Shown: positions 12,335-54,853 of the stretch, piece by piece
Layout of the letters: each line of letters begins with the position of its first letter
Position numbering within the stretch: the first letter of the stretch is position 1
From: a virus
IMG/VR virus record: IMGVR_UViG_3300025289_000028
Location: 5,342 to 69,341 of that record
DNA: 64,000 bases
Reading direction: 5' to 3' (one strand)
Notes under the pieces: model-generated
Databases searched by the model: none
What the model was told of the DNA's origin: nothing
What the model saw: the letters and a program-made list of their open reading frames with translations, nothing else
Made by a program: the position numbers and the translations under genes

Positions 12335-12607
12335 ATGATATTTAAAAAAGGAAATATAATAACAACAAATGAAAGAAACGCATTTGAAATTCTTGGTGTG
12401 AATGAAAGCGAAATTTGTGTGAGAGATTTGATAACTGAGGATTTCTCAGTATTTTCAAAAACAGAACACACTTATTCATTATTTAATCCAAAGATTGTTC
12501 TTAAAAATTGCATTAAAGAAGTTGTGGATGATACTGAAATTAGTATTCATGATAAAGAATTCATAACAGATAACATTAACATATTATTAGAAAAATTCAT
12601 CATATGA
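12335..12607 (+). CDS. hypothetical protein (90 aa); degenerate motif-like C-terminus ...NILLEKFII*
   Basis: ORF in packed array. Confidence 0.5.
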   Translation: MIFKKGNIITTNERNAFEILGVNESEICVRDLITEDFSVFSKTEHTYSLFNPKIVLKNCIKEVVDDTEISIHDKEFITDNINILLEKFII

Positions 12608-13560
12608 GTAATAATACAAATAATTTCAATTTCGATGCCGTAGGAACTTGTTATTTTGTTGACCCAGAATACCACATGATGCTACAAATTAACCAATTGT
12701 GGGATTCAACCGGTGATTTAGGTAAAGGAGATTCAATAGGAAGAACATTTGAGGCATATTACACATATCGAGATAAACGTTTTGTGGATGCTATTAAAAG
12801 TTGTTGGGTTGAAATAGATCTAGAAAGTGAACATGGTTATTATTACCAAGGCTATAGATTTCCTTCACATGATGATAAAACTCTATCAAGAGACCATTAT
12901 TTGAATACAATTTTAACGCTCATTGCATCTAATCATACCGAAGGTGAAGTTAAAGAATTTGTTACTCATGTTAATTGGAAACTCAGTGAGAAGTATAATC
13001 AAACATTAGATTTATGGTTGTGGTCAAGAGCTGTTTCCGGCATATGGTGGGCGAAAATTTTGTCACCAATTGTTGAAATATCTTTAATGAGCATAAATGT
13101 ATTATGGCAAAAATTTTGTTATTTAATAGCGCCGTTTTCTCCGGAATTGAGCCAAGAAGAATTTTGTTCCACACCTAAACCAGTTAAAACTAAATGGCAA
13201 AAAATTGTTGGTAATGCATTGTTCCCATCTTATACAATGACTCAGATAGCTTGGAAAATACATTATTCAAAAAATTCAATATCAAAAACTATTTTAAAAT
13301 GGTTACTCCTAAAAATTGCTAATAAACACAACTATGTTGTAAAATTATTATTGGATGATTCCAAAGTCACTAAGGAGCAAGTTTATTCTTATAAACCAAT
13401 GCTTGGAGGTAGATGGGACGGAATTTTAAATCCTCAAATAAATGATAGAGATTTACATATAATTGATGGTGCAAGATATGGAAATCATGAACAATTGTTA
13501 AGTGCAAATGTGCTTGATGTTGATTTAGTGAGAGAAATTTATAAAAACAAAACGAATTAA
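12604..13560 (+). CDS. hypothetical protein (318 aa)
   Basis: ATGA overlap with the upstream gene; immediately precedes the radical-SAM gene. Confidence 0.6.
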   Translation: MSNNTNNFNFDAVGTCYFVDPEYHMMLQINQLWDSTGDLGKGDSIGRTFEAYYTYRDKRFVDAIKSCWVEIDLESEHGYYYQGYRFPSHDDKTLSRDHYLNTILTLIASNHTEGEVKEFVTHVNWKLSEKYNQTLDLWLWSRAVSGIWWAKILSPIVEISLMSINVLWQKFCYLIAPFSPELSQEEFCSTPKPVKTKWQKIVGNALFPSYTMTQIAWKIHYSKNSISKTILKWLLLKIANKHNYVVKLLLDDSKVTKEQVYSYKPMLGGRWDGILNPQINDRDLHIIDGARYGNHEQLLSANVLDVDLVREIYKNKTN

Positions 13561-13562: not shown

Positions 13563-14441
13563 ATGAAATTATTAGAAAAAGTTAAATCAACACAGGATAA
13601 AACAATTAAGTATGTTTTTAAATTAAAAGACGGTTTAATTTCAGAAGCAACTTATATCGATAATAATACCGGCAAAGATATTATTTGTATAAGTTGTCAA
13701 ACGCTTTGCGCTATGGGTTGCACTTTTTGTCACTTAACAGATTATATAGGTAAACTAAAATTGAGAAACCTTAGTAATTGGGAAATGACAGAACCGGTTG
13801 ATTATATTTATGATGATTTAAAATTAAAAGATAACAACAGAGCTCTTTTGATTTCTTATATGGGAATTGGCGAGCCTCTTCTTAATATTGATAATGTAAC
13901 CGAAAGTATGAGGTTACTTAAAGGACATTATGAAAATGTTAGATTTGGCTTAGCAACCAGTCTACCTAAAGGTCAATGGAAAAACATTTTCACCCTTGCA
14001 AGTTATGTTAATTTTCATAAAATTCCACTCAAAGTGCATCTTTCTCTTCACTATACAAAAGATGATCAAAGGAATAAATCAATGCCGAATGCTTTAAATA
14101 TTAAAGCCAGCATTGCAGCTCTTGAATTTTATAAACAAGTTACCGGCAATTCAGTAGAAATTCATTATACACTAATTAAAGATGAAAATGATACGAATAA
14201 TGATTTGAGTACTCTTCTTGTTATGTTAACAAATAGAGATATACCTGTTAAATTTCTTAGATTTAACGAGAAAGAAACAAGTGAAAGCAGAAAGGCTGAA
14301 TTATCACGAATAGGTCATTTTAGAACCCTTCTTGAAAATAATGAAATTAAAACAGAATACTACAAGCCTCCAGGAAAAGATGTTTCATCTTCATGTGGAG
14401 AATTCTTATCTGATTATTATTTAAAATACAATAAAATATGA
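13563..14441 (+). CDS. radical SAM enzyme of the RlmN/Cfr family (rRNA/tRNA adenine C-methyltransferase-like)
   Basis: 'CISCQTLCAMGCTFC' matches the RlmN/Cfr Cys cluster pattern C.S.Q..CA..C.FC including the CxxxCxxC 4Fe-4S motif. C-terminal 'GKDVSSSCGEF' matches the RlmN 'G.DIDAACGQL' methyl-carrier Cys block. Confidence 0.65.
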   Translation: MKLLEKVKSTQDKTIKYVFKLKDGLISEATYIDNNTGKDIICISCQTLCAMGCTFCHLTDYIGKLKLRNLSNWEMTEPVDYIYDDLKLKDNNRALLISYMGIGEPLLNIDNVTESMRLLKGHYENVRFGLATSLPKGQWKNIFTLASYVNFHKIPLKVHLSLHYTKDDQRNKSMPNALNIKASIAALEFYKQVTGNSVEIHYTLIKDENDTNNDLSTLLVMLTNRDIPVKFLRFNEKETSESRKAELSRIGHFRTLLENNEIKTEYYKPPGKDVSSSCGEFLSDYYLKYNKI

Positions 14442-14677
14442 TAAGCGACGACTTTGTGTTTAAAATCGGGAAATACGCAGGGATTACATATAAGATAGTA
14501 AAACAAACTAATCCTTCATATATTGAGTGGGCGAAAGAAAAAGCACCTTATCTTCTTAAGGAAAAAAAGAAAAAAGAACCACTTCCGGCTCCTAAAATGA
14601 TTATACCGCCAGAAATAAACGATAAAAAAGGTTATGTACTAACACCTAATTTGAATTTTTTAAACGAAAAAAAATGA
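14438..14677 (+). CDS. hypothetical protein (79 aa)
   Basis: ATGA overlap with the upstream gene. Confidence 0.5.
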   Translation: MISDDFVFKIGKYAGITYKIVKQTNPSYIEWAKEKAPYLLKEKKKKEPLPAPKMIIPPEINDKKGYVLTPNLNFLNEKK

Positions 14678-16423: not shown

Positions 16424-16573
16424 ATGAAAACAGATAAAAGAGTACAATTTCCACTAACATTATCTAGTGAACTTAGAAAGGAGTTTGATAATTTTTGTGA
16501 AGAAAGAGCTATTAATAAATCACAATTAATAGAATGGTTAATATTGCAATACATTGGAAAAAATGAAAAATAA
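16424..16573 (+). CDS. ribbon-helix-helix (CopG/Arc-like) small DNA-binding protein, 49 aa (not in ORF track)
   Basis: MKTDKRVQFPLTLSSELRKEFDNFCEERAINKSQLIEWLILQYIGKNEK*: the classic RHH pattern. Overlaps the annotated start of the GIY-YIG gene. Confidence 0.55.
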   Translation: MKTDKRVQFPLTLSSELRKEFDNFCEERAINKSQLIEWLILQYIGKNEK

Positions 16574-17648
16574 AGAAAGAAAACCAATGGGTTATTGGAC
16601 AAAAGAAAATTGTGAGAAAGAAGCATTAAAATACAGCTCAAGAAGCAATTTTGAAAGAGGTTCAAATGGAGCTTATGATAAATCTTTAAAAAACAATTGG
16701 TTAAATGATATTTGTAAACATATGATTACTAAAAAGAAACCAAACGGATATTGGACAAAAGAAAAATGTTTAGAAGAGGCATTAAAATATAGAACAAAAA
16801 CAGATTTTGCGAAAAAATCCAGTGGAGCATATGATTCTGTTTATAGAAATAAATGGGTTGAAGAATGTTGTTCACATATGGAAATTCTTGGAGATTTATA
16901 TAAAAGACTTATTTATGTAGCTGTTTTTGCAGATAATCATATTTATGTTGGTTTAACTGGAAATCCAAATAAAAGATTTGATGAACATTTAACTGATAAT
17001 AGATGCATTGTTTATAAACACATTAATAGAACAGAGTTAAAACCAAAATTTATAAAATTAACAGATTATTTGGATAACGAAAATGCCTCAATACAGGAAG
17101 GTGTTTTTAAAGAAAAATATGAAAAAGAAGGATATGTTATTTTAAATATAGCAAAAACTGGTTCCCTTGGAAGTGCTCCAAGAAAATGGACAAAAGAAAA
17201 ATGTACAGAAGAAGCTAAAAAATACGAATCTCGTTCTGAATTTAAAATAAAAAATAATTCTGCATATAGTGCCGTCATAAGAAATAACTGGGGAGATGAT
17301 TGTTGTAAACACATGGTTAGACGTAAAAAACCAAATGGCTATTGGAATATTAAAGAAAATTGTATAAATGTAGCTCTTCAATGTGAAAGCAGAACAGAAT
17401 TTATTCAAAAATATCCACGAGCACATGATTATGCTTGTAAAAATAAATGGCTTGAAGAAATTTGTTCTCATATGAAATTACTGAAAGAAATTTGGACTTT
17501 TGAAAAAATTTACAATATTGCAAAAAATCATAAAACTCTTTTTGAATTCAGGACAAAGAACAAAAGAGACTATGAAATTTTACGTTCTAATTTAGAATGG
17601 AAAGAAAAAATTTATACAGAATTTGGTTGGAAATCTCGTAAAAAATAA
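16554..17648 (+). CDS. GIY-YIG homing-endonuclease-like protein with four tandem ~45-aa repeats
   Basis: Central 'LIYVAVFADNHIYVGLTGNPNKRFDEH' is a GIY-YIG catalytic motif. Flanking repeats follow (K/R)PNGYWTKE.C.EEA.KY..R.EF....SAY...RN.W.D..C.HM (x4). The true start may be the internal Met near 16584. Confidence 0.7.
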   Translation: MEKMKNKERKPMGYWTKENCEKEALKYSSRSNFERGSNGAYDKSLKNNWLNDICKHMITKKKPNGYWTKEKCLEEALKYRTKTDFAKKSSGAYDSVYRNKWVEECCSHMEILGDLYKRLIYVAVFADNHIYVGLTGNPNKRFDEHLTDNRCIVYKHINRTELKPKFIKLTDYLDNENASIQEGVFKEKYEKEGYVILNIAKTGSLGSAPRKWTKEKCTEEAKKYESRSEFKIKNNSAYSAVIRNNWGDDCCKHMVRRKKPNGYWNIKENCINVALQCESRTEFIQKYPRAHDYACKNKWLEEICSHMKLLKEIWTFEKIYNIAKNHKTLFEFRTKNKRDYEILRSNLEWKEKIYTEFGWKSRKK

Positions 17649-17691: not shown

Positions 17692-18186
17692 ATGGAAGAC
17701 AAAAAATACACTTTTTTCTGGAAAACCGAATCACCGTTTTCTAACTGGCACCACGCCGAATTCACAATTGACGGAGTTAAATTTAAGAACACAGAAATGC
17801 ATATGATGTGGAAGAAAGCTATGTTATTTGGAGATGCAGACACAGCAGAAGATATTTTAAAAGCAAAACACCCAAGAGATTGCAAAGATTTTGGTAGAAA
17901 AGTAAAAGGATTTGATAAGAACATTTGGGAAGAAAATTGTAAACAATTTGTTTATGATGGGAATTACGCAAAATTCACTCAAAATCCGACTTTATTGAAA
18001 GCTTTAATGGCTACCGGCAACACAAAATTAACTGAAGCAAGTCCGTTTGATAAAATTTGGGGAATTGGGCTTTCTGAAACTGATGCAAAAAATATTCCTG
18101 AAGAAAAATGGAACGGGACAAATTGGTTAGGAGAAATTTTAACTACGCTCAGAGAAAATCTAAAAGAACAAAGTTTAAAAAAGTAA
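17692..18186 (+). CDS. NADAR-family protein (YbiA-like, DUF1768)
   Basis: 'FFWKTESPFSNWHHAEF...FKNTEMHMMWKKAMLFGD...NPTLLKALMATGNTKLTEASPFDKIWGIG' matches the YbiA/NADAR signature blocks. Confidence 0.7.
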   Translation: MEDKKYTFFWKTESPFSNWHHAEFTIDGVKFKNTEMHMMWKKAMLFGDADTAEDILKAKHPRDCKDFGRKVKGFDKNIWEENCKQFVYDGNYAKFTQNPTLLKALMATGNTKLTEASPFDKIWGIGLSETDAKNIPEEKWNGTNWLGEILTTLRENLKEQSLKK

Positions 18187-31313: not shown

Positions 31314-32738
31314 ATGCAACAAATAATTTTAATCTATGGTATTCCTTCAATAATATTGATTGCTATTTCTATTTATGTTTTCTCTCTACGAAGAATTGTT
31401 CCTACAAATGTAGTTCATATTGTTCAAAGGGGAAATAAAACAGTTTCATACGGAGTGGGAAAAGAATCTAATGTCTATTATGAATTTCCTGGATGGCTAC
31501 CAAAAATAGGTGTTATTAAGCGAGAATTGCCTGTATCAAATTTTGATATTGATTTATTAAAGTATTCTGCTTATGATAAAGACCGAGTACCTTTTGTGGT
31601 TGATGTTAAAGCGTTCTTTCATATAGCAGATACTAATAAAGCCGCAGAGAAAGTAGAATCATTTGATGAAATGAGAAAGCAATTAGAAAATGTTGTTCAA
31701 GGTGCTGTCCGTTCTATATTGGCAAAATCAAAATTGGAAGAAATAATGGAAGAGCGTTCTATTTTTGGAGATAAGTTTACTGAAAATGTAAAAACCGATT
31801 TGCAAAATTGGGGCGTTGAGCCAATAAAAAATATCGAGTTGATGGATGTGAGAGATGCTGATGGCTCAAATGTTATTCATCAGATAATGGCAAAAAGAAT
31901 TTCTGCAATTGATATGGAATCAAGAACAGAAGTTGCTAAAAATAGAAAGTTTGCTCAACAAGCGGAACTTGAAGCACAAAAAGAAATTGATATAACAAAA
32001 GCTGATACAGAAAAGATGTCCGGAGAGGCACAAGCTAAATCCAAACAAGCAATTGGTATAGCACAAGCAGAATCAGACAAACAATCAGGTATTGCTAATC
32101 AACAAGCAGTTTCAGAGATTGCAAAATCAGAAAGATTGACAGCCGAGCAACAGATGGAAGTTATTAAAGTAAATCAAATCAAACAAGCTGAAATCAATAA
32201 GGAGAATGCCATTATCTTAGCTGAACAAGATAAGAGAAAAATGGAAATTTCAGCAGAAGCCAATAAATTTAGAGTAGAAACTGATGCTTCTGCTCAACTG
32301 GAAGCCAAAAAGAAATTGGCAGAGGGTGAAAAAACTTTCGGTGAGGCTGAAGCTTTTGTTATTCAAGCTAAAGGTATTTCTATGGCAGAATCTAAGAAAG
32401 CAATGGAATTAGCAGGTGTAACAGCTCAAACAACACTGGCGAAAGAGATTGGTGAAAACAAACCTTATCAAGAATATTTGATAAAGATTAAAGAGGTTGA
32501 AGTTAGCCAAGTAATTGGTGTTACTCAATACGAATCAATAGCAACTGCTTTATCGAAAGCTGATTTAAAACTTTTAATCAATAGCGGTGATGTACATTCT
32601 GGTATAGGTAAATTGTCAGACTTATTTACCGCTAAAGGAGCTTCTCAACTAAATGGAATGATTGAGGGATTAAAGCAAACAGATGAAGGAAAAAGCATTC
32701 TGTCTATTTTAGACAAATTTAAACCTAAAGTAGGATAA
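31314..32738 (+). CDS. SPFH/band-7 (flotillin-like) membrane protein
   Basis: An N-terminal TM helix is followed by an SPFH domain and a long Ala/Glu/Gln-rich coiled-coil (AEQDKRKMEISAEANKFRVETDASAQLEAKKKLAEGEK). Confidence 0.7.
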   Translation: MQQIILIYGIPSIILIAISIYVFSLRRIVPTNVVHIVQRGNKTVSYGVGKESNVYYEFPGWLPKIGVIKRELPVSNFDIDLLKYSAYDKDRVPFVVDVKAFFHIADTNKAAEKVESFDEMRKQLENVVQGAVRSILAKSKLEEIMEERSIFGDKFTENVKTDLQNWGVEPIKNIELMDVRDADGSNVIHQIMAKRISAIDMESRTEVAKNRKFAQQAELEAQKEIDITKADTEKMSGEAQAKSKQAIGIAQAESDKQSGIANQQAVSEIAKSERLTAEQQMEVIKVNQIKQAEINKENAIILAEQDKRKMEISAEANKFRVETDASAQLEAKKKLAEGEKTFGEAEAFVIQAKGISMAESKKAMELAGVTAQTTLAKEIGENKPYQEYLIKIKEVEVSQVIGVTQYESIATALSKADLKLLINSGDVHSGIGKLSDLFTAKGASQLNGMIEGLKQTDEGKSILSILDKFKPKVG

Positions 32739-36906: not shown

Positions 36907-37181
36907 TGAAAAAAATTAATCACGATGAAATTTCAGTACTAAAACGTATAGTACTTATAGAAAAAAGTTATTATTTTAAAAAAGGTGATACCGTTAGAAT
37001 AAATACTAAAATTATAGAGCCTTATTATTATTGGCGTGAATTTAAAGAAAGTTTAGGGACTGTATTTTCCTGTGATAAAGAATGGAACGAAGTAACAATA
37101 TTATGGTTTACTACAAATGATAGAGTAGGATTACCGTCATTATGGGATTCTTTTAATTTAATTAGAGTTGATAAGGATTGA
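36906..37181 (+). CDS. hypothetical protein (91 aa); N-terminal ...LKRIVLIEK motif
   Basis: Last gene of the plus-strand array. Confidence 0.5.
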   Translation: MKKINHDEISVLKRIVLIEKSYYFKKGDTVRINTKIIEPYYYWREFKESLGTVFSCDKEWNEVTILWFTTNDRVGLPSLWDSFNLIRVDKD

Positions 37182-38285
37182 CTTTAAATAATCAGTCAAT
37201 ATAGTCTCAATGTTCTTAAAGTCCCAGTAAGGAATTCTTAATAATGGAATGTTATTGTTTTTGCAGTATTCGTTTTTTATTTGGTCGTTTAGTTGCCTTG
37301 CTTTAAATGTTTTTTCACCACCAAAGTATTTAAAAGCTTTAAAATGTTGAGCTCCATCAAATTCTACACAAGTATTATAATCTGGTAAATAAAAATCGAA
37401 AGGTAATTTAAAAACATTTTTACAATCATCAAAAGTTTTTTGATATGTAAATATTATATTTTTTTCTTCTAAAATTTTAGTAATTTTAATTTCTCCTTTT
37501 GAAAAATTTGAACACTTTGGACAACCATTTCCAAATAAATGCATTGCTGGCCTTTGTTTGAAAATACCATGTTTATTACAAATTATATCTACTTTTGTTT
37601 GGTTATTTACATATTTTACATTATCATAATTATAAGTATTTCCATGAACTTCAAAAGATTTTGCCAAAAATATTTCTTTAGTTCCAACATATCCACCACT
37701 ACATATGTCACATCCGCGTCCTCTTAAATGGTCTTTGGCTAATTGACTGAACTTTCCATGTTTATTACAAATTATTGTTACTTTATTATCATTTTTTGTG
37801 TATAAAACTTCAGAATAATCGTATTTATTATTATGTTTTTCATTAGATTTTTTTATAAAATCTTCTTTTGCATATTGATACGTTCCTGAACAATAAATAC
37901 AACCCCTTCCACTTAAATGACTATCAGGTCTTTGATTAAATTCTCCATGCTCTGGACAAATTATAATAATTGGTTGTTTATTATTTTTATATACCACTTT
38001 TGAATAATCGTATTTATTATCATGAACTTCATTTGATTTAATAATAAATGATTCTAAAGTATGTTTACTTGGTAATGTTCTTTCTCCTTCGTACATACAT
38101 TTCTTACAATTATATCCTTTCATGTGATTTCTTGGAGATTGTAAAAATTCGCCATGTTTCTCACATATAATTGTGGATTTTACTGAGGAATTAACATATT
38201 CAAATTTTGAATAATCGTACCTTTCTCCATGAATTTGTTTTGCATTAAAAATAAATTTTTCAATACTTATAGCTTTCCCACTCAT
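37158..38285 (-). CDS. Homing-endonuclease-like protein with 5 tandem Zn-ribbon modules and a C-terminal Vsr-like PD-(D/E)xK nuclease domain
   Basis: Repeats follow YDYSK(V/F)EY.N...K..IIC..HG.F.Q.P..H..G.GC..C. C-terminal 'LPFDFYLPDYNTCVEFDGAQHF' resembles the Vsr 'FVDGCFWH' core. Paralog of 52833..53987. Confidence 0.65.
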   Translation of the reverse strand: MSGKAISIEKFIFNAKQIHGERYDYSKFEYVNSSVKSTIICEKHGEFLQSPRNHMKGYNCKKCMYEGERTLPSKHTLESFIIKSNEVHDNKYDYSKVVYKNNKQPIIIICPEHGEFNQRPDSHLSGRGCIYCSGTYQYAKEDFIKKSNEKHNNKYDYSEVLYTKNDNKVTIICNKHGKFSQLAKDHLRGRGCDICSGGYVGTKEIFLAKSFEVHGNTYNYDNVKYVNNQTKVDIICNKHGIFKQRPAMHLFGNGCPKCSNFSKGEIKITKILEEKNIIFTYQKTFDDCKNVFKLPFDFYLPDYNTCVEFDGAQHFKAFKYFGGEKTFKARQLNDQIKNEYCKNNNIPLLRIPYWDFKNIETILTDYLKSILINSN

Positions 38286-38425: not shown

Positions 38426-38537
38426 TTTTAGTGTTTTGGTAATTATAAAACATTATTATTATATTGTAAAGTATTACTTATAATTATAAATAGTATAAAA
38501 AATTTTACATTCTAATAAAATGTATTACATTTGTAAA

Positions 38538-40925
38538 ATGGCAAAGAAAAAAATAGGTTCCGATAATCAGAAATACGTTATGGTGGTAGAGTCTCCATCA
38601 AAAATAAAAAAGATAAAAGAGATATTAAAAGAAATAGGATATCATAATTATGATTGTATAGCTTCGGTGGGACATATCTTGGAATTAGATAAAGGTGCAA
38701 AAGGAGTGGATAAAAAAAATAATTTTGAACCACATTACATTGTATCTGAAAGCAAGAAAGATGTTGTTAAAACATTAAAAGAATTTAAGAAAAATGGATA
38801 CGAATTTATTCTTGCTTCTGACTTAGACCGAGAAGGCTCATTTATAGCTCATTCAGTGGCTATAACTTTAGACCTTCCATTAGAAACAACTAAACGTGCT
38901 GTATTTAATGAGATAACAAAAACAGCAGTAAAAAACGCAATAGATAATCCTGGAATAATTGATAAAAATTTAACTAATTCTCAACAAGCAAGACGTGTTT
39001 TGGATAGAATTGTAGGGTTTGATTTAAGTGGGTTGCTCTGGAAAAAAGTAGCCCCTAATTTAAGTGCTGGAAGGGTGCAAAGTAGCTCCGTTAGACTGAT
39101 AGTTGAAAAAGAAAGGGAAATAAAATCTTTTGAATCGGATGTAGATTTTAAAACTACTGGAGCTTTTGAAACAAAAAAAAGAGTTTCAATAAAATCTATT
39201 TTAGATAAAAGATTTAAAGATAAGCAAACTGCACATAAATTTTTAAATGAATGTATTGGAAAAGAATTTATAGTTAACAATAAAGAAACAAAAATTGGAA
39301 AACGTACAGCTTCAGCACCATTTACAACAAGTACATTACAACAAACTGCTGGAAATAAATTAGGATTTAGCGTTAAAAGATGTATGGATACTGCTCAATC
39401 GCTTTTTTCCAAGGGGTTTATTTCTTATCACAGAACTGATTCTGTAATGCTTTCAGAAGATTCTATTAAAGAGATTTCCACACAAATAAAATCAAAATAC
39501 GGAGATAAATATTTATGCAACAAGCAATATAAGAACAAAAACAAAGGAAGTCAGGAAGCTCATGAAGGAATCCGTTGTTCTCATTTCGAACAAGAAACAA
39601 TATCTGGCTCTTCTGATGAAGTTAGACTTTATGATTTAATATATAAAAGAGCTTTGGCTTCACAAATGAGTGATGCAGTTACAGAACTTACAAAAATTAC
39701 TATTGGCACACAAAACATAAAAGAACAATTTGTAACTAAAGGGACAATTATAAAATTTGATGGGTTTTTAAAAGTATACAACGACACAGATGATAATAAA
39801 GAAGATAATGAAAATGAAGATAGTGATTCTAAAATCCTTCCACCTTTAGAAAAAGGTGATAAACTTTATTATAAAGAATTAGTTTCATCACAATCATTTT
39901 CAAAACCAGTACCAAGATTTAATGAACCTGGACTTGTTAAATCCATGGAGGAGCTTCAAATTGGCAGGCCATCAACCTACGCTACGATAATCCAAACAAT
40001 CCAAGACCGTGGATACGTTGAAAAAAAAGATATTGAACCAAAGGAACGTAAAATCCAAACATTAACTCTATCATCAACAAACAATAAAATAGAAGAAAGT
40101 GAAGTAATAGATAAATTTGGAGGAGAAAAAGGAAAATTAGTTCCAACAGAAGTTGCCGGAGTGGTAGTTGACTATCTAAAAAAACATTTCCCGGACATCA
40201 TGGATTATAAATTTACTGCAGAGACTGAAGAAAAACTTGATGAGATAGCAGAAGGAAATAAAGAGTGGCAACAGATGATTGGAGAGTTTTATGAACCATT
40301 CAGCAAGACATTAAAAGAAGCTGCAGGCGAAGAAGGAAAAGCCGGAATAAGAGAAATTGGCAAAGACCCAAAAACAGGCAAAATAATCTACGCTCGTTTA
40401 GGTAAATTCGGACCAATGATACAAATGGGAGAGAGTGTTGACAAAAAAAGTGATGAAGAAAAGCCAAAATTCGCCAAATTAAAAGAAGGACAAACAATAG
40501 AAAACATCACTATAGAAGAGGCATTAGAACTTCTTATATGGCCAAGAAATATGGGTAAACATAAAGGTGAAGACGTTTCAATTGCAATAGGACGCTTCGG
40601 CCCATACGTCAAAGTCGGTCAAATCTACAGTTCAATTTCTAAAGAAGAAGACCCTTCCACAATATCTTTAAAACGTGCAATAGAAATCTTTGAAGAGAAA
40701 AGTGCAGCAAAGAGTAGTAATACCATTAAAGAATTTAAAAAAGAAGGCATAAGCGTACTTAATGGTAAATTCGGAGCGTACATAAAATCTAAGACAGGCA
40801 ACCATAAAATTCCTCTAGGAAAAGAAGCTGATACTTTAACTTTAAAAGATTGTGAAGAAATTATTAAAGAATCTAAAAATTCACCGAAGAAGAAAAAATT
40901 CACTAAATTCAAAAAGAAAGAATAA
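38538..40925 (+). CDS. topA: DNA topoisomerase I (type IA)
   Basis: Toprim 'VMVVESPSKIKKI' and 'DLDREGS'. 'SAGRVQSSSVRLIVEKEREI' is a conserved TopA block. Active-site 'GFISYHRTDS'. C-terminal 'GRFGPYVKVG' and 'NGKFGAYIKSK' repeats. Start placed at MAKKK (38538); the ORF-track start is 38520. Confidence 0.9.
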   Translation: MAKKKIGSDNQKYVMVVESPSKIKKIKEILKEIGYHNYDCIASVGHILELDKGAKGVDKKNNFEPHYIVSESKKDVVKTLKEFKKNGYEFILASDLDREGSFIAHSVAITLDLPLETTKRAVFNEITKTAVKNAIDNPGIIDKNLTNSQQARRVLDRIVGFDLSGLLWKKVAPNLSAGRVQSSSVRLIVEKEREIKSFESDVDFKTTGAFETKKRVSIKSILDKRFKDKQTAHKFLNECIGKEFIVNNKETKIGKRTASAPFTTSTLQQTAGNKLGFSVKRCMDTAQSLFSKGFISYHRTDSVMLSEDSIKEISTQIKSKYGDKYLCNKQYKNKNKGSQEAHEGIRCSHFEQETISGSSDEVRLYDLIYKRALASQMSDAVTELTKITIGTQNIKEQFVTKGTIIKFDGFLKVYNDTDDNKEDNENEDSDSKILPPLEKGDKLYYKELVSSQSFSKPVPRFNEPGLVKSMEELQIGRPSTYATIIQTIQDRGYVEKKDIEPKERKIQTLTLSSTNNKIEESEVIDKFGGEKGKLVPTEVAGVVVDYLKKHFPDIMDYKFTAETEEKLDEIAEGNKEWQQMIGEFYEPFSKTLKEAAGEEGKAGIREIGKDPKTGKIIYARLGKFGPMIQMGESVDKKSDEEKPKFAKLKEGQTIENITIEEALELLIWPRNMGKHKGEDVSIAIGRFGPYVKVGQIYSSISKEEDPSTISLKRAIEIFEEKSAAKSSNTIKEFKKEGISVLNGKFGAYIKSKTGNHKIPLGKEADTLTLKDCEEIIKESKNSPKKKKFTKFKKKE

Positions 40926-41839: not shown

Positions 41840-42213
41840 GTAATCTGTGTAAATGATTGAATCTCAGAGTATTCAAGTAGGTACAAGCTCTCAAAAACTG
41901 ACCAAAAGTTGGTATATTTTATATAAAACGTCTTGTTTTTTTCATATTTTTCCATTAAAATCTCATTATTTCCATTGATATTTTTAATGTAAAATATGTA
42001 ATCTTTGTACTCTGAGTTTGTATATAATTCACACCCATCAATTTTCGAAATAAAAAATTCTTTCATTTCTGTTTCCTTGGCTTTTTGAGAAATGTATTTC
42101 TCAAACAACACTTTTCTCGTCAAAAATGAACACAAGTCCACCTTTATCCCAAGGTTTGTCCATGGTGTATCCTTAACTTTTTCTTGCTTTTCTTTCAAAA
42201 TAGCATTTGACAT
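41767..42213 (-). CDS. hypothetical protein (148 aa); ...LTRKVLFEK motif. The last ~24 codons are encoded by CRISPR repeat 4 and spacer 3
   Basis: Minus-strand ORF in an operon with 42216..42845 and 42876..43787. The 3' end reads into the array, so the true C-terminus is uncertain. Confidence 0.5.
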   Translation of the reverse strand: MSNAILKEKQEKVKDTPWTNLGIKVDLCSFLTRKVLFEKYISQKAKETEMKEFFISKIDGCELYTNSEYKDYIFYIKNINGNNEILMEKYEKNKTFYIKYTNFWSVFESLYLLEYSEIQSFTQITLEDGLKSNGYKTSIVAEEFGYQP

Positions 42214-42215
42214 AT

Positions 42216-42845
42216 TTAAGATTTATAAAGGGAGGGTCTCAACCGGTTGTATTCTATTTTTTTAGCTAAATGTCTTTCTATGTCAATATTGTAAAACTCA
42301 ATAAGTGAGCCTAAATGAAATAAAATATGAGAAAGCCCATAATCTTCATCTTTGTCAGAAGAAAATAAACACATCGACAAAGCTTCATTTAACCAGTGAG
42401 CAACATTTTTATTGAATTCCTCTCTGGGTCTTACATTAACAAAAAAATGATTTAATTCAGAGTTTTCAAATGGCTCAATCCAAGGATGTGCAGAAATTAT
42501 ATCAATTTTTTTGCCACCAATCAAATCGGTTATTCTAAGGATGACATTAGCTATTTCGTCTTCAAAAGTATCTTTAATACATTCTTTATATATTGCTCTT
42601 TTTTCAAGATTTATATTTTGAACGTCTGGATAACTTTCTAAACTAAGTAAATCCTTTTCATAAGAATTCCAATCAGCTCTTCGTCCTTTTTTAAATGCTT
42701 TAGCAATATCTCCTAAATTAGAAAATATGTATAACATTTCTTCTCTTAAGTCTTTTTCTTTTTCCCAGAACCCGTGGTCTCGACCAAGAATGTGTGAAGT
42801 TTCAATTAGTGCGTGAATGTTCATAATTTTGTTATATTGTAGCAA
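42216..42845 (-). CDS. hypothetical protein (209 aa)
   Basis: Minus-strand ORF, tightly linked. Confidence 0.55.
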   Translation of the reverse strand: MLQYNKIMNIHALIETSHILGRDHGFWEKEKDLREEMLYIFSNLGDIAKAFKKGRRADWNSYEKDLLSLESYPDVQNINLEKRAIYKECIKDTFEDEIANVILRITDLIGGKKIDIISAHPWIEPFENSELNHFFVNVRPREEFNKNVAHWLNEALSMCLFSSDKDEDYGLSHILFHLGSLIEFYNIDIERHLAKKIEYNRLRPSLYKS

Positions 42846-42875
42846 ATATAGTTATTAAAATTAAAAACTACACCC

Positions 42876-43787
42876 TTAAATATTCTCATGTTTATCCGAA
42901 AGCTCCATTAATAAATTCAATAAATTAAGACAGATTTCATTACCGTCATTGGATTTGTTAATTTTCTTAACTTCTTTATTATATTCTTCTAAGAATTTAT
43001 CTCCGGCTTTAGTATTAGAATTAATGTTAGAAACATATTTATTAGCAAAGTTAATAAAACTTTCTCTAAAATCTCTTTTTTCTGTTCTTAATTCCCATTC
43101 TTCTGTGGTAAAGAATTCTATACCAGAATTTGTGAAAATATAAAACATAGAGTCAACGGCTCCTTTTCTGTTTTTTGAGAAGGTAATTGTTCTTTCATTT
43201 GTTTTTTTATCAAAATTCATAATCATATGAATATCAATAAGCTGTTTAAGACAAGCCGCTCCTTTGTAGTCACCAGCTTTAGTATTATGCGAAATAATAA
43301 AAACAACAGCATTATTTTCCTCTGCCCATGTTCTTAAAATTTTACTAATATGATTTAACGCATCTTCTTCAGATAATTCAGTAAAATCCTCCATAGCTAC
43401 TGCCTGAATTGAATCAAGAATAACTATTTCTGGTTTTAAAGTATTTAATTCTTTGATATAATCATTAAAATGAGGATGAGTTTTTTTGTCAGCAATATAA
43501 GCATTACTATGTTTCGGTTTCACATTTGATGTTTGCTCACAAACTGAATTTAAGCTCACCTCCCTTTCATACATAGAAATAACAGTATTTGACATTACAC
43601 TCATTAGGTTGAGCATTAAACTAGTCTTGCCAGCTCCTGATGTTCCACTCAAAAGAATAGAACTACCTTTTACTAATCCACCTTTATTTGATAACCAGTT
43701 ATCAAATTTTTCATTACCAGTTTTTAAAGTAGGTTCATTACTCAATTTTACCTCTTTAACTTTTTGACTTTTAATTACAGTTTCCAT
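42876..43787 (-). CDS. RecA-superfamily ATPase, DnaB-helicase C-terminal-domain-like
   Basis: Walker A 'LSGTSGAGKTSLMLNL', Walker B 'EIVILDSIQAV', 'VVFIISHNTKAG'. Resembles the DnaB_C / KaiC / RadA fold. Confidence 0.65.
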   Translation of the reverse strand: METVIKSQKVKEVKLSNEPTLKTGNEKFDNWLSNKGGLVKGSSILLSGTSGAGKTSLMLNLMSVMSNTVISMYEREVSLNSVCEQTSNVKPKHSNAYIADKKTHPHFNDYIKELNTLKPEIVILDSIQAVAMEDFTELSEEDALNHISKILRTWAEENNAVVFIISHNTKAGDYKGAACLKQLIDIHMIMNFDKKTNERTITFSKNRKGAVDSMFYIFTNSGIEFFTTEEWELRTEKRDFRESFINFANKYVSNINSNTKAGDKFLEEYNKEVKKINKSNDGNEICLNLLNLLMELSDKHENI

Positions 43788-43906
43788 ATTTGTTTGCTCT
43801 TTTTAATATTAAACGGATTAAGAGCTTAAATGTTGCAATGTGTGAATTATGCAATTAAAATATTTCATTTCAATATGTTTGTAGCTATTTATAATAAATT
43901 AATGTT

Positions 43907-44095
43907 ATGAAGATTATTGATAGAAGTAATAAAGCAGCAATTGTTGAAATTACTAACATAGAGCTTAAACAAAGAGGATTTGATGCTATTTGGGATGATA
44001 TAAGGAAAGAGTTTACAGAAAACCTTTATGAAGTAGATAAAGTTGATGTTTCTGAGAAGACAATACTATTTAAACTAAAATTGAAAAAGTATTAA
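43907..44095 (+). CDS. hypothetical protein (62 aa)
   Basis: Short isolated plus-strand ORF. Confidence 0.35.
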   Translation: MKIIDRSNKAAIVEITNIELKQRGFDAIWDDIRKEFTENLYEVDKVDVSEKTILFKLKLKKY

Positions 44096-44490
44096 CCCCT
44101 TTCAAAAAATGGAATTAATATTTCTGTTGAGTTGCTCATTGTCACGAAGTCAAATTCAACATGTCGAAAAATAAAAAAATAAATTCCTTCCATTTCATCA
44201 AGCTCTGTTCTTACCCAATACTTTTTCTCAATTAATGTGACAAATCTATTATTACTTCTTATCTTTTCAGTTAAAACAATCCTATTTTTAAAAAAAACAC
44301 ATAGAAAACTATCAATTTGTGTTTCGGAAACAATTACATTACAGTCATTATCTTGTATAATTGTTGAAATAAAGCTTTCATTGATTTTAACAATTCCAAA
44401 AATAGATTCTTCATTTATATGAATATTATTGAATTCTGATGACGCTCCCTCATATCTATCACATTTTGAAATCGACTTATAGGGTTTCAT
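44092..44490 (-). CDS. hypothetical protein (132 aa)
   Basis: Minus-strand ORF. Confidence 0.5.
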   Translation of the reverse strand: MKPYKSISKCDRYEGASSEFNNIHINEESIFGIVKINESFISTIIQDNDCNVIVSETQIDSFLCVFFKNRIVLTEKIRSNNRFVTLIEKKYWVRTELDEMEGIYFFIFRHVEFDFVTMSNSTEILIPFFERG

Positions 44491-44491
44491 T

Positions 44492-45250
44492 TTAGATTCT
44501 TTGAATGTTTATTTCTTTTATGAATTTACCAGTAATTGAAACATAGTCGCAAAAAATATCTTTTATTTCAAAAGCCAGCATTTTTTTATTTTGGTCAAGC
44601 ATTAGAAACCTGGTTCCGGTAGCCATTGTTCTAACTTCTTTCGGTAGTTCAATATCTGTTTCGGCGTAATCTAAGTTTATTCTTATTTCAACATGCTCTT
44701 CATCTTCAACTTTTGAATTTTTATTTAAAGTCAACAATTCTAAAGACTCTTCACTTATTCTTTTTATCTTATCTTCTATCTTTTGTGCCTTTTCCTGAAT
44801 CATAGCATCCATTCGTTGAATCATGTCTTCCAATTTCTTTTCCTTGTCTTGAATTATGATTACTAATGATTTTATCTTTTCGTCGGCCAGCTTTAATAGT
44901 TCCTCTTTTTTTGTTTCAGAAACATTATTTATTTCAACATTGGCTTGTTCTGTTCCTTTTTTAATAGCAGATAAACTTTCTTCTTCTGGATTTGGAGGAT
45001 TTAAATTATCTTTTATTGGTCTTTTACCATTTGAATAATTTACTATTAAATTTTTTATATATTCGTCAGTTCCGGCCTTTTGATCATAGTTAGCGTTCGA
45101 CTTAAAGTTATACTTAAAATAAAATGTTTTTATAGCATCAAATTCTTGACCGTTATATTTTTCGACCAAATTTGGTACATCTGATTTTTTGGTGTGATTA
45201 TATTTTTCATATAAATCTTCCAAAAGTATTTGAAAATGTTCTTTGTTCAT
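44492..45250 (-). CDS. hypothetical coiled-coil protein (252 aa)
   Basis: Minus-strand ORF. Confidence 0.55.
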   Translation of the reverse strand: MNKEHFQILLEDLYEKYNHTKKSDVPNLVEKYNGQEFDAIKTFYFKYNFKSNANYDQKAGTDEYIKNLIVNYSNGKRPIKDNLNPPNPEEESLSAIKKGTEQANVEINNVSETKKEELLKLADEKIKSLVIIIQDKEKKLEDMIQRMDAMIQEKAQKIEDKIKRISEESLELLTLNKNSKVEDEEHVEIRINLDYAETDIELPKEVRTMATGTRFLMLDQNKKMLAFEIKDIFCDYVSITGKFIKEINIQRI

Positions 45251-45264
45251 ATCAATAATTATGT

Positions 45265-45298
45265 AAAATTAAAAAAGGGAGCTAAATAATTGCTCCCT
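45265..45298 (-). terminator. Rho-independent terminator downstream of ssb
   Basis: On the minus strand: AGGGAGC-aattattta-GCUCCCU hairpin followed by UUUUUUAAUUUU. Confidence 0.75.
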
Positions 45299-45322
45299 CT
45301 TAATTAATTGAAAATCAAAAAG

Positions 45323-45799
45323 TTAGAAAGGAAGATCGTCGTCTGAATCACTTCCAGTTGTTACGGTGGCTGCTGTTGCTGTTGTTTTTCCAGCTGTTTT
45401 TACATTTACAGGTGTTACTGTTTTTGTCGGAGCCTCTGTTTTTGTAGAAGTTTCTCCATCTTCAGATTTTTTAGAGTCAAGAAATTCAATAGTGAATGCA
45501 TTAACTTCTGTGGTATATCTTTTAACACCATCTTTATCATCCCAACTACGGGTCTGCAGTTTTCCTTCAATATAAACCAAACTTCCTTTTGATACATATT
45601 TAGAAATTAATTCAGCTTTTTCAGCCCAGGCAACAATATTGTGCCATTCTGTTTTTTGTTGTTTTACTCCAGCTTTGTCTTTGAAATTTTCAGACGTTGC
45701 TATAGCAAAATTTACCACTTTACTTCCTCCTTCGAAGTTTTTGAGTTCCGGATTAGCTCCAACTCTTCCTACTAAAATTACTTTGTTTACTGATGCCAT
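45323..45799 (-). CDS. ssb: single-stranded DNA-binding protein
   Basis: N-terminal OB-fold block 'VNKVILVGRVGANPELKNFEGGSKVVNFAIATSE', the acidic tail 'DDDLPF*', and a Gly/Thr-rich linker. Confidence 0.9.
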   Translation of the reverse strand: MASVNKVILVGRVGANPELKNFEGGSKVVNFAIATSENFKDKAGVKQQKTEWHNIVAWAEKAELISKYVSKGSLVYIEGKLQTRSWDDKDGVKRYTTEVNAFTIEFLDSKKSEDGETSTKTEAPTKTVTPVNVKTAGKTTATAATVTTGSDSDDDLPF

Positions 45800-45834
45800 T
45801 TTTTTGGTTTTTAAATTGTTTATGAATAGTTGTA

Positions 45835-45864
45835 CAAATATAATAAATAAAATTAACTTCCAAA
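45835..45864 (-). promoter_or_regulatory. Bacteroidota-type sigma-A promoter upstream of ssb: TTTG-N18-TATATTTG (-33/-7 elements)
   Basis: On the minus strand: ttTTGgaagttaattttatttatTATATTTGtacaa, ~35 nt upstream of the ssb ATG. No Shine-Dalgarno sequence. Confidence 0.5.
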
Positions 45865-45884
45865 ATTATTTTTCAAAATTCTTT

Positions 45885-46088
45885 TTAAGATTCGCCTATA
45901 GATGATATTTTCATTTTAGACGAGCCCGATCCCAATGTGTTATCACATAATCCAGATAAGATAATTTCAAAATACCACCAAGATGGATAATCATTATTAT
46001 TATCTTTTTTAACTTTATCGCAGTTTTCATTCCATTCTTTGGAATTTTTACTTGATTTCATCAACTCTATTACTTCTTGTTTTTCCAT
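45885..46088 (-). CDS. hypothetical protein (67 aa)
   Basis: Minus-strand ORF. Confidence 0.4.
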   Translation of the reverse strand: MEKQEVIELMKSSKNSKEWNENCDKVKKDNNNDYPSWWYFEIILSGLCDNTLGSGSSKMKISSIGES

Positions 46089-46100
46089 TTTTATATAATT

Positions 46101-52829: not shown

Positions 52830-52832
52830 ACA

Positions 52833-53987: not shown

Positions 53988-53988
53988 C

Positions 53989-54839: not shown

Positions 54840-54853
54840 CATTTTCAATAATT

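Follow-up and report, generated by a model that had tools for sequence, protein, structure and literature searches.

The gene examined here lies in a 64-kb stretch of viral DNA (the whole stretch analyzed, called the window below) and encodes a member of the RlmN/Cfr superfamily of class-A radical-SAM methylases, its carrier being a huge phage of about 500 kb. To our knowledge, RlmN and Cfr are the only characterized class-A radical-SAM methylases, and a single adenine target in rRNA and tRNA defines them both. The window protein exposes a very large huge-phage clade in which the catalytic machinery is whole, the domain that reads RNA shape is gone and the substrate pocket is altered. The best explanation, put forward tentatively, is a competent, minimal class-A methylase of this huge-phage clade, whose target would be an adenine in an RNA stem-loop and which would not act in Cfr-type resistance.

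Superfamily placement and catalytic residues

RlmN is the dual-specificity C2-methyltransferase of 23S rRNA A2503 and tRNA A37, and Cfr is the C8-methyltransferase of 23S rRNA A2503. The original prediction had assigned the product to an RlmN/Cfr-like family from its cysteine pattern and C-terminal block, and profile, fold and residue comparisons bear out membership of the superfamily. The NCBIfam model TIGR00048 (RlmN) matches at E=5.8e-38 with 130.7 bits, where the next unrelated NCBIfam family reaches 24.6 bits, and Pfam Radical_SAM scores above its cut-off; among PDB sequences, RlmN 6fz6 is found at E=2.8e-20 and Cfr at E=1.2e-9. The best Foldseek matches of the AF2 model (pLDDT 92.8) are all RlmN, with TMq 0.82-0.84, followed by Cfr with TMq 0.67, and the next fold, the PFL-activating enzyme, comes at TM 0.58 and E=6e-9, where RlmN and Cfr give E=1e-21 to 1e-12. 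Because homology is established by TIGR00048, 6fz6 and 381 database homologs, a chance origin of the motifs is irrelevant.

The closest match in both sequence and fold is RlmN (E. coli, PDB 3RFA and 5HR7; Sphaerobacter thermophilus, 6FZ6), with which the protein has in common the CX3CX2C cluster, the two mechanistic cysteines, GxGEP, E105, the beta-sheet extension and the spacing of the C-terminal tail, although identity is 23-29% and the HhH2 domain (PF21016) is lacking. Cfr (PDB 9P0P; cfr, cfr(C), cfr(D)) belongs to the same superfamily and uses the same mechanism, and its S153 corresponds to S98 of the window protein, but the match is weaker than that to RlmN, and both the Cfr alpha5/beta6 loop extension and the N-terminal domain are missing. 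An RlmN ortholog was considered and rejected: the score of 130.7 bits compares with a curated equivalog cut-off of 290 bits for TIGR00048, the N-terminal domain is lacking, an invariant Tyr replaces an Arg, and the clade is a separate one. In neighbor-joining trees, built with no outgroup, a split with 99% and 86-90% bootstrap divides cellular RlmN and Cfr from the window family. The three Cfr sequences come together elsewhere with 100% support, to the exclusion of the window protein. By its profile and fold scores, the protein stands apart from unrelated radical-SAM families.

The CX3CX2C motif lies within the partial TIM-barrel radical-SAM core, and the two extra cysteines of class A are also present, one in the tail (C278) and the other seven residues ahead of the cluster motif (C42; Table 1). 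The pattern C.S.Q..CA..C.FC read by the first analysis fits residues 42-56 (C-I-S-C-Q-T-L-C-A-M-G-C-T-F-C), and the SSSCGEF block was located correctly, at residues 275-281. In the alignment of the 39-member family, C42, Q46, C49, C53, C56 and C278 are invariant, the last aligning with the methyl-carrying Cys of RlmN (C355) and Cfr (C338); E28 and the GxGEP motif are invariant or kept, and C45, which lies outside the motif, is variable. The tail that wraps the target adenine has the same Gly-to-Cys spacing as in RlmN and Cfr. With the full catalytic set retained, the methylase is apparently catalytically competent.

Table 1. Positions in the window of the methylase gene, its adjoining reading frames and its catalytic motifs
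Feature	Coordinates	Strand	Description
Methylase gene	13563..14441	+	ATG-to-stop ORF, 292 aa; Pfam Radical_SAM, TIGR00048, PHROG 27142, AF2, Foldseek
Cys42 codon	13686..13688	+	RlmN C118 / Cfr C105 from alignment columns; invariant in 39-member family
C49-x3-C53-x2-C56, [4Fe-4S]/SAM cluster motif	13707..13730	+	RlmN C125/C129/C132
M100-G-I-G-E-P105, GxGEP SAM-binding motif	13860..13877	+	Common to RlmN and Cfr
C-terminal tail E265-Y-Y-K-P-P-G-K-D-V-S-S-S-C278-G-E-F	14355..14405	+	C278 = RlmN C355 / Cfr C338
318-aa ORF, upstream	12604..13560	+	No sequence-family match; confident model, (alpha/alpha)6-barrel-like fold
79-aa ORF, downstream	14438..14677	+	ATG overlaps methylase stop (ATGA)

From this conserved catalytic set and the established chemistry of RlmN and Cfr, we infer a methyl transfer of the same kind. 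A first SAM would methylate Cys278, and a second would be cleaved at the [4Fe-4S] cluster held by C49, C53 and C56, giving a 5'-deoxyadenosyl radical that would take a hydrogen from methyl-Cys278. The methylene radical so formed would add to the sp2 (amidine) carbon of the adenine, and Cys42 would resolve the covalent enzyme-substrate adduct to leave the C-methylated base, much as the resolving Cys of RlmN (C118) and Cfr (C105) resolves the covalent enzyme-substrate cross-link (PMC13001441).

It might be asked whether a nucleobase is methylated at all, since the pocket is heavily altered and the enzyme could instead turn its radical-SAM core on a protein, a small molecule or some other substrate, or have a structural or regulatory role. 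Related fusions lacking the catalytic cysteines persist in many copies, which indicates that the domain can survive as a non-enzyme, and in a related chimallivirus/Pseudomonas-plasmid clade the resolving Cys is replaced by Tyr. In the window family, however, none of the five mechanistic cysteines varies among sequences down to 47% identity, nor do the SAM motifs or the tail geometry. Selection for the complete ping-pong methyl-transfer chemistry would be expected to leave such a pattern, and a role of this other kind seems quite improbable.

The missing docking domain and the substrate pocket

Three parts make up the product: a beta-sheet extension, the partial TIM barrel of the radical-SAM core and a C-terminal tail. 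As had been remarked before, it is shorter than canonical RlmN, covering positions 73-342 of the 355 in the TIGR00048 profile, and the reason is the absence of the N-terminal HhH2 domain. Pfam RlmN_N (PF21016) picks out the control RlmNs P0278 and P0293 and gives no match to the window protein, which has 0 residues N-terminal to the beta-extension, compared with 58-83 in eight cellular proteins. The HhH2 domain reads the L-shape of tRNA and rRNA. It binds the rRNA H91/H92 junction, the equivalent of the tRNA acceptor stem and D-arm, in Cfr and RlmN and anchors Cfr on the H90/H91/H92 junction (PMC13001441), and an isolated anticodon stem-loop is not methylated by RlmN (PMC5130265).

The pocket set of L95, L96, S98, E199, E265, Y267, P269 and P270 is family-specific and more hydrophobic or acidic, and the residues replaced are the RNA-contacting ones in RlmN and Cfr. 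E265, Y267, P269 and P270, which stand for RlmN I342, R344, T346 and R347, are invariant apart from P269, which is nearly so; L95, L96 and S98 take the positions of RlmN T171, N172 and V174. Over a wider set, RlmN E111, T116, T171, N172, V174, R344, T346 and R347 become N/K, I, L, L, S, Y, P and P, respectively. An Arg found in every canonical RlmN and Cfr sequence compared (RlmN R344, Cfr R327) is here an invariant Tyr (Y267); Cfr R327 bonds the target ribose. The net charge and pI of the core did not separate phage from cellular enzymes.

Seven residues are conserved among Cfr orthologs and diversified in RlmN, namely Y97, W101, S103, S151, S153, Q329 and F330 (PMC12887959), and their equivalents in the window protein are N34, K38, I40, L96, S98, P269 and P270, so that the S153 equivalent alone matches. 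With one of these seven residues shared, and with Cfr models giving 77-81 bits against cut-offs of 468-550 bits, neither the Cfr-type activity raised in the original prediction nor a role in Cfr-type resistance is supported. Action on A2503 of host 23S rRNA in general, either at C8 with resistance to PTC antibiotics or at C2 with ribosome tuning during infection, appears very improbable. The superfamily and the catalytic residues are the same, and JGI and GenBank label homologs 23S rRNA (adenine2503-C2)-methyltransferase, a label that rests on homology only. Against this, the domain that anchors Cfr on H90/H91/H92 (PMC13001441) is absent, the equivalents of Q329 and F330 are Pro-Pro, scores lie well under both the RlmN and the Cfr cut-offs, and the grouping of RlmN with Cfr at 99% bootstrap leaves out the window clade. 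Moreover, methylation of this rRNA is confined to the stage before the 50S subunit is fully assembled (PMC13602947), and a lytic huge phage would therefore gain little from such an enzyme. In antibiotic-resistance surveillance, phage genes of this clade should not be counted as cfr-like resistance determinants.

The huge-phage clade and its candidate substrates

The viral context assumed for the gene is upheld by an identical 292-aa protein on a contig of 503,412 bp and by phage-type genes in the 64-kb window; a nucleotide comparison of the 12 kb around the gene with 50,697 phage records gave no match. The best 120 of the 381 database homologs are all 283-337 aa long, on contigs of up to 503 kb, and IMG/VR holds 41 related loci, on contigs of up to 676 kb. 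A search of one genome each for 185,579 species gave 6 matches, all in MAGs. At E<=1e-30, 725 clusters (50% identity) were collected, among which canonical RlmN with its RlmN_N domain enters only at 177 bits or less. The clade of the window protein is found almost only on huge-phage contigs and is distinct from cellular RlmN and from Cfr.

Named relatives in PHROG 27142 include Tunturi_5 gp170 (host Tunturiibacter), Psa21 gp398 and 201phi2-1 gp434 (both Pseudomonas) and the proteins of BUCTxx99 (Stenotrophomonas) and Arash (Salmonella), all of which lack the N-terminal domain and are labeled 'Fe-S-cluster redox domain-containing' or 'rRNA large subunit methyltransferase N'. The Tunturi_5 protein, which is 37% identical and has the same pocket signature, groups with the window family at 74% bootstrap, and more weakly in a second tree. 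The Psa21/201phi2-1 group is a separate clade with Tyr where the window protein has its resolving Cys, and the BUCTxx99 and Arash proteins group with cellular RlmN and Cfr, their pocket residues differing from those of the window protein. No functional study of phage RlmN-like proteins was found in the literature searched.

We weakly infer that the substrate would be RNA and the methylated carbon C2 or C8. The target could be, e.g., the A37 position in anticodon loops of phage or host tRNA, and its recognition would be simpler than, or different from, that of RlmN, as there is no HhH2 domain to read the L-shape. As far as we know, rRNA A2503 and tRNA A37 are the only substrates of the superfamily, which counts for RNA. 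Gene neighborhoods in the clade point the same way: in the subclade at least 58% identical to the window protein, a DNA ligase gene lies within 2 kb in 4 of 9 lineages, three of these four also having an Rnl2-type and two an Rnl1-type RNA ligase nearby; more distant phage homologs lie within or adjoin tRNA arrays and RtcB; and Thg1-like genes occur within 10 kb in 6 loci. On the other side, tRNA or tmRNA genes within 10 kb were seen in 13 of the 41 related loci, several of them redundant, with no clear enrichment. Nearly all anticodon loops of the nearby phage tRNAs have A37, hence they do not discriminate, and ARAGORN and Rfam searches of the 64-kb window gave no tRNA and no Rfam match. The loss of HhH2, the replaced RNA-contact residues, the fusions of relatives to dCMP deaminase and nucleoside 2-deoxyribosyltransferase (NDT) family domains and the deoxynucleotide-metabolism genes beside the methylase in many lineages all count against an RNA target. 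If that target is the true one, huge phages have their own C-methylase for anticodon loops or other RNA, of relevance to translation takeover or to evading tRNA-cleaving defenses.

The fusions and deoxynucleotide genes suggest instead an enzyme of DNA-precursor or DNA metabolism that C-methylates adenine, either in a deoxynucleotide or in the phage DNA, before or after replication, and in that case the lost RNA-docking domain and the altered pocket would reflect a change of substrate. We consider this rather unlikely, though a serious rival to the RNA reading. Rosetta-stone fusions occur in the nearest relatives outside the family, which are 33-37% identical to the window protein: in metagenomic proteins P0216 (dCMP deaminase followed by the radical-SAM domain), P0237 (radical-SAM domain followed by dCMP deaminase) and P0250 (radical-SAM domain followed by Nuc_deoxyrib_tr), the radical-SAM part is core-only with all cysteines and has the same signature L-L-S / E-x-H-Y / Y-x-P-P as the window protein, which is itself a stand-alone domain. 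A TadA-type (tRNA) identity of the fused deaminase was rejected, at 28 bits against 113 bits for the ComEB/dCMP type. A junction search added further fusions of radical-SAM and deaminase domains, with 36, 22, 8 and 5 member sequences. In the most abundant fusions, though, the radical-SAM motifs have decayed, either the SSCG cysteine or the entire cluster motif being gone, and these fusions therefore argue for physical association and not for chemistry. Each intact fusion was seen on a single contig.

Gene order adds to the case for deoxynucleotides among lineages whose methylase has 44-53% identity to that of the window, where a dCMP deaminase gene lies 3-164 bp off, RNR 22-38 bp, ThyA 57 bp, dUTPase 236 bp, ThyX 392 bp and NDT about 500 bp. 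Enzymes of the deoxypyrimidine/pyrimidine pathway make up 9 of 141 immediate neighbors, and none is among the 25 top families listed for 150 control ORFs 6-10 kb off (one-sided p about 0.0015 with respect to those listed families). The gene for Tunturi_5 gp170 adjoins those for an exonuclease, an SbcD-like protein and a DnaB-like helicase, and phage DNA modification has a radical-SAM precedent in M6 gp53 (PMC8989533), which also speaks for a DNA target. Nucleotide-metabolism markers are nevertheless missing near the gene in the 64-kb window and in the subclade at least 58% identical, and a dCMP deaminase partner has no obvious call for an adenine methylase. We know of no class-A radical-SAM methylase acting on DNA or free nucleotides. 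The product could be 2- or 8-methyl-deoxyadenosine, and the literature searched describes no C-methyl-adenine in phage DNA. The earlier idea that the enzyme modifies the phage's own nucleic acid gains some support from the domain fusions. That the core-only huge-phage clade has left RNA modification, its enzyme being a nucleobase C-methylase physically coupled to dNTP-pool enzymes (dCMP deaminase, deoxyribosyltransferase-like), is unlikely. A DNA or deoxynucleotide target, if true, would mean a new phage DNA modification chemistry and the first class-A methylase with a non-RNA substrate.

Genes beside the methylase in the window

The immediate surroundings of the gene are uninformative as to its substrate. 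Homologs of RNA ligase, RtcB, Thg1, dCMP deaminase, ThyA, ThyX, RNR, dUTPase and NDT were not found in the 64-kb window, and PADLOC defense-system models matched neither the methylase gene nor its neighbors. When the ORFs of 51 related loci were clustered all against all, no neighboring gene was common to more than 8 loci, the commonest neighbor being a homing-endonuclease-like family.

The upstream 318-aa ORF had been proposed as a partner that overlaps the methylase gene by ATGA, and neither part of this proposal holds. Its TAA, at 13558-13560, is followed by a 2-nt spacer and then by the methylase ATG at 13563; the ATGA overlap of the methylase gene is that with the downstream 79-aa ORF, at 14438-14441. 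The 318-aa ORF adjoins the methylase gene only in the closest relative (75% identity) and is absent beside methylases at 68% identity or less, and its own homologs (40-61% identity) have no radical-SAM gene adjoining. It is a lineage-specific neighbor and not a conserved partner. The downstream ORF is likewise kept only in the closest relative and matches ExoX-like_C weakly (E=0.0022, below the Pfam cut-off). A further ATGA overlap joins a 90-aa ORF to the 318-aa ORF at 12604-12607.

Family assignment and catalytic apparatus

The cysteine motif and the C-terminal block from which an RlmN/Cfr-like methylase had been predicted are both present in the 292-aa window protein, at residues 42-56 (C-I-S-C-Q-T-L-C-A-M-G-C-T-F-C) and 275-281 (S-S-S-C-G-E-F). 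In NCBIfam, it matches the RlmN model TIGR00048 at E=5.8e-38 (130.7 bits, profile positions 73-342 of 355) and the Cfr models at 77-81 bits, scores far under the curated cut-offs of 290-633 bits, and the top unrelated radical-SAM family reaches 24.6 bits. Pfam returns the generic Radical_SAM domain only, and PHROGs return phrog_27142 ('Fe-S-cluster redox domain-containing'). The PDB sequence matches are Sphaerobacter RlmN 6fz6 (E=2.8e-20), E. coli RlmN (E=2.6e-15) and Cfr (E=1.2e-9). An AlphaFold2 model (mean pLDDT 92.8), with an alignment of the window family as input (39 sequences, down to 47% identity to the window protein), retrieves exclusively RlmN chains at the top of a Foldseek search of the PDB (TMq 0.78-0.84), followed by Cfr (0.67) and then pyruvate formate-lyase activating enzyme (0.58). 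These profile, sequence and fold matches therefore do not place the protein with unrelated radical-SAM families, and it is a genuine member of the RlmN/Cfr superfamily.

Invariant in the family alignment are C42, Q46, C49, C53, C56, S98, M100, G101, G103 and E104, as well as H159-L-S-L-H163, E199, H201, Y202, N209, E265, Y267, P270, S277, C278 and G279; C45 is variable and lies outside the motif. Compared with E. coli-type RlmN and Cfr, C42 aligns with the cysteine resolving the enzyme-RNA cross-link (RlmN C118, Cfr C105), the cluster ligands C49, C53 and C56 with RlmN C125, C129 and C132, and C278 with the methyl carrier (RlmN C355, Cfr C338), the spacing from tail glycine to carrier cysteine being equal to that of RlmN and Cfr. 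Judged from these residues, the predicted apparatus for RlmN/Cfr-type ping-pong methyl transfer (summarised in PMC13001441) is complete and under selection, and we infer that the protein is active. Because of this conservation the chemistry can be proposed with high confidence: a methyl-Cys would form on the carrier cysteine, a radical would be generated, addition to an sp2 carbon of a purine would follow, and C42 would resolve the adduct.

A core-only clade and its substrate pocket

In eight cellular RlmN, Cfr and related proteins 58-83 residues precede the beta-sheet extension, in the window protein 0, and in all phage homologues examined 0-21. The Pfam domain RlmN_N, found in control RlmNs retrieved by the family profile, is absent from the window protein, which is thus core-only, i.e., without the HhH2 N-terminal domain. 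In the Cfr structure obtained with rRNA by cryo-EM, HhH2 is fixed at the point of divergence of H90, H91 and H92 and reads RNA shape; in the RlmN-tRNA complex the counterparts of H91 and H92 are the acceptor stem and the D-arm (PMC13001441). RlmN requires distal tRNA elements, an anticodon stem-loop 17-mer not being a substrate (PMC5130265).

According to Fruci et al., Cfr (M95, Y97, W101, S103, D150, S151, S153, S328, Q329, F330) can be told from RlmN (I109, E111, R114, T116, T171, N172, V174, K345, T346, R347) by ten residues close to the target adenine (PMC12887959). The same columns in the window family read I32, N/K34, K38, I40, L95, L96, S98, a variable 268, P269 and P270, S98 alone resembling Cfr and I32 alone RlmN; the predicted pocket thus has a strongly conserved signature of the family's own. 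The arginine of every canonical RlmN and Cfr compared (RlmN R344, Cfr R327), which in Cfr hydrogen-bonds the target ribose (PMC13001441), is replaced by the invariant Y267. Likewise, the invariant E199 and E265 take the places of T276/Y252 and I342/T325 of RlmN/Cfr.

To our knowledge, every characterised relative acts on RNA and, since the part of the tail that surrounds the adenine also retains its geometry, our tentative preference is for an adenine in an RNA stem-loop, similar to tRNA A37, as the target, with methylation at either C2 or C8. The loss of the shape-reading domain and of the RNA-contact residues speaks against this. Some homologues, among the matches listed, carry the JGI name 23S rRNA (adenine2503-C2)-methyltransferase; that A2503 itself is the target, as the original prediction had it, is very improbable, and the same losses bear on that reading.

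When 27 sequences were joined in a neighbour-joining tree over 286 columns, cellular RlmN, three Cfr types, a Variovorax 'RNA methyltransferase' and the proteins of phages BUCTxx99 and Arash form a group (99% bootstrap) with the window family outside it; Tunturi_5 gp170 joins the window family (74%), and a third group (100%) unites Psa21, 201phi2-1 and a Pseudomonas megaplasmid protein. A second NJ tree of 45 sequences supports canonical RlmN, Cfr and Variovorax at 86% (90% once BUCTxx99 and Arash are included) and unites all core-only proteins with the window-type signature (71%). Both trees lack an outgroup, so that they separate the clades and do not give the direction of evolution.

The third group, Psa21 gp398 (L019:4001-4882), 201phi2-1 gp434 (L020:3971-4879) and the Pseudomonas sp. 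FeN3W protein (L017:701-1564), from phiKZ-related Pseudomonas jumbo phages and a 910-kb plasmid, is a separate core-only RlmN-like clade that keeps the cluster motif and the methyl-carrier cysteine and has Tyr at the position of the resolving RlmN C118. Mutation of this residue in RlmN (C118A) traps the covalent enzyme-RNA adduct, and the Tyr clade may therefore use a different chemistry. As a side observation, the RlmN-like genes of BUCTxx99 (OR529408.1, L021:3992-4951) and Xanthomonas phage JGB6 are called 'prohibitin family protein' in GenBank, which is likely a mis-annotation.

A word-indexed search gave 381 homologues at E<=1e-5; the best 120 have lengths of 283-337 aa and share 47-75% identity with the window protein, and several of those listed lie on 200-500 kb contigs. 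IMG/VR contributes 41 loci, the longest contig measuring 676 kb; 185,579 bacterial and archaeal species (one genome each) yielded six matches only, all in metagenome-assembled bins (Patescibacteria etc.) or unclassified bins. An exhaustive profile search returned 725 clusters (50% identity) at E<=1e-30, and nearly all of the best 150 hits begin at residue 1-20 of a 265-340-aa protein. The closest homologue among isolated phages is gp170 (37% identity) of the Tunturiibacter jumbo phage Tunturi_5, a 309-kb myovirus with 43 tRNA genes (PMC11924767).

Neighbourhoods, fusions and the substrate

Across 134 related loci, grouped into 80 lineages at 85% methylase identity, no single neighbour family is widely conserved, and two partial associations were found. 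In the subclade at least 58% identical to the window protein, a DNA ligase lies within 2 kb in 4/9 lineages (L005, L071, L078 and L024), with an Rnl2-type RNA ligase nearby in three of the four and an Rnl1-type in two, a tendency that favours an RNA target. Thg1-like genes occur at 4-7 kb in 6 loci, and ArgRS and IF3 appear twice each among 141 immediate neighbours. In more distant clades, the BUCTxx99 gene sits within an array of 13 annotated tRNA genes and that of Psa21 adjoins tRNAs and RtcB. However, only 13/41 IMG/VR loci, several of them redundant, have a tRNA or tmRNA within 10 kb, and this weak linkage counts against RNA.

In lineages 44-53% identical to the window protein, the methylase gene is accompanied by dCMP deaminase (3-164 bp away; the L027 group of 12 loci, L081, L038), ribonucleotide reductase (22-38 bp; L008, L110), ThyA (57-1003 bp; L131, L007, L079), a Nuc_deoxyrib_tr-like gene (about 500 bp; L007, L153), dUTPase (236 bp; L050) or ThyX (392 bp; L043). 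Ribonucleotide reductase, dUTPase, dCMP deaminase, aspartate carbamoyltransferase or ThyA make up 9/141 immediate neighbours and are absent from the top 25 families of 150 ORFs located at a distance of 6-10 kb in these loci (one-sided p about 0.0015 by our own arithmetic, the control being those top 25 families only).

The best 150 profile hits include three fusions, P0216 (dCMP deaminase then radical-SAM), P0237 (the reverse order) and P0250 (radical-SAM then a nucleoside 2-deoxyribosyltransferase-family domain), each on one contig. With 33-37% identity to the window protein, they stand nearer to it than any canonical RlmN, keep every mechanistic cysteine and carry the window-family signature (L-L-S, E-x-H-Y, Tyr at 267 then S/P-P). 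In P0216 and P0237 the deaminase domain hits ComEB-type dCMP deaminase (113 and 61 bits) as well as a model of an anti-phage dCTP deaminase; the tRNA deaminase TadA was rejected as the fused domain (a weak 28 bits for P0216, none among the matches listed for P0237). Searching with the junction region of P0237 retrieved more radical-SAM-deaminase fusions with many members, P0323 (36 sequences, 6 contigs), P0331, P0326, P0329 and P0316 (22, 8, 5 and 5 sequences). In these five metagenomic proteins the radical-SAM part is degenerate and the SSCG carrier cysteine lost, P0331 also lacking the Fe-S cluster motif, and the domain appears, from its sequence, to be a pseudo-enzyme kept on a nucleotide-metabolism enzyme. 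The physical link of the clade with dCMP deaminase is therefore real and repeated, and it can outlive catalysis.

Such fusion and adjacency to deoxynucleotide enzymes argue against RNA and for DNA or a deoxynucleotide as the target, which, set against the RNA-acting relatives, we consider rather unlikely. A non-methylase or non-nucleobase role, as the degenerate fusions might suggest, is improbable for the window protein with its conserved cysteines. The 64-kb window holds no RNA-repair or deoxynucleotide marker genes, so its local context adds nothing on the substrate.

An RlmN-like gene in a phage is not in itself new, because GenBank and PHROGs annotate such genes and Kaminska et al. noted viral members of the family in 2009 (PMC2836569); no functional study of these was found in the literature searched. 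What appears undescribed in that literature is a very large clade that uniformly lacks the N-terminal domain and is nearly confined to huge-phage contigs, with a conserved substrate pocket of its own and with links, through fusion and gene adjacency, to dCMP deaminase and further enzymes of the dNTP pool. The substrate question lends itself to direct testing, as covalent capture of the substrate is expected with a C42A variant and Tunturi 5 provides a cultured model.

Setting of the gene in the window

The original prediction also proposed the upstream 318-aa ORF as a partner overlapping the methylase gene by ATGA. Its TAA stop in fact occupies 13558-13560, two bases before the ATG; the ATGA overlaps are at the methylase 3' end, with a 79-aa ORF beginning at 14438, and at 12604-12607, between a 90-aa ORF and the 318-aa ORF. 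The 318-aa protein has 37 homologues and no match in Pfam, NCBIfam, PHROG or PADLOC. It adjoins the methylase only in the window lineage and a 75%-identical relative, L070, which also retains the 79-aa ORF; relatives at <=68% identity have different neighbours, and no radical-SAM gene lies beside three examined homologues of the 318-aa protein, at 40-61% identity. The partnership thus finds no support, and the ORF is treated as an unrelated neighbour.

Selected genes of the window
Feature	Position	Strand	Remark
Methylase ORF	13563..14441	+	ATG to stop, 292 aa
Upstream 318-aa ORF	12604..13560	+	no overlap with methylase gene
GIY-YIG endonuclease	16554-17648	+	N-terminal modules repeated
NADAR protein	17692-18186	+	strong NADAR domain, E=5e-50
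SPFH/Band-7 protein	31314-32738	+	cell-like
HNH/DUF4379 homing-endonuclease-like paralogue	37158-38285	-	phrog_559, about 1e-88
Type IA topoisomerase	38520-40925	+	full, with C-terminal repeats; cell-like
PcfJ-like protein	46101-48158	-	cell-like
HNH/DUF4379 homing-endonuclease-like paralogue	52833-53987	-	phrog_559, about 1e-88
DnaJ homologue	60468-61610	-	complete (J, Zn-finger, C-terminal domains); cell-like

The identical 292-aa protein is recorded on at least 24 contigs, the largest of 503,412 bp, which makes the source a huge phage; a nucleotide search with 12 kb around the gene gave zero matches among 50,697 phage records. G+C across the window is 26-32%, and neither tRNA genes nor Rfam families at gathering score were found in it. 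Genes of phage type in the window include those of the topoisomerase, the DnaJ homologue, the SPFH/Band-7, PcfJ-like and NADAR proteins, and homing endonucleases of GIY-YIG and HNH type; the two HNH/DUF4379 paralogues and the GIY-YIG gene point to several mobile endonuclease genes in the region. The NADAR gene, situated 3 kb downstream of the methylase, is kept in the closest relatives; NADAR proteins reverse ADP-ribosylation of DNA, and the gene may therefore mark an anti-defence region. Coding strand and GC skew flip from + to - in blocks at about 42000-48000 and 52000-64000, which are transcription-direction modules. The peptide motif R-x-V-L-I-E-K occurs in ten different ORFs, starting at 10936, 11404, 12310, 15025, 19992, 20861, 23244, 35870 and 36951 (+) and 54877 (-), frequently at or near the C-terminus (TREVLIEKNN*, TREVLIEKNGN*, ERIVLIEKI*, ERVVLIEKYK*), with a chance expectation roughly estimated at below 1. 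Its codons vary at synonymous sites, so that conservation seems to lie in the peptide and not in the DNA; the motif may serve as a signal for sorting or cleavage, or may mark paralogues.
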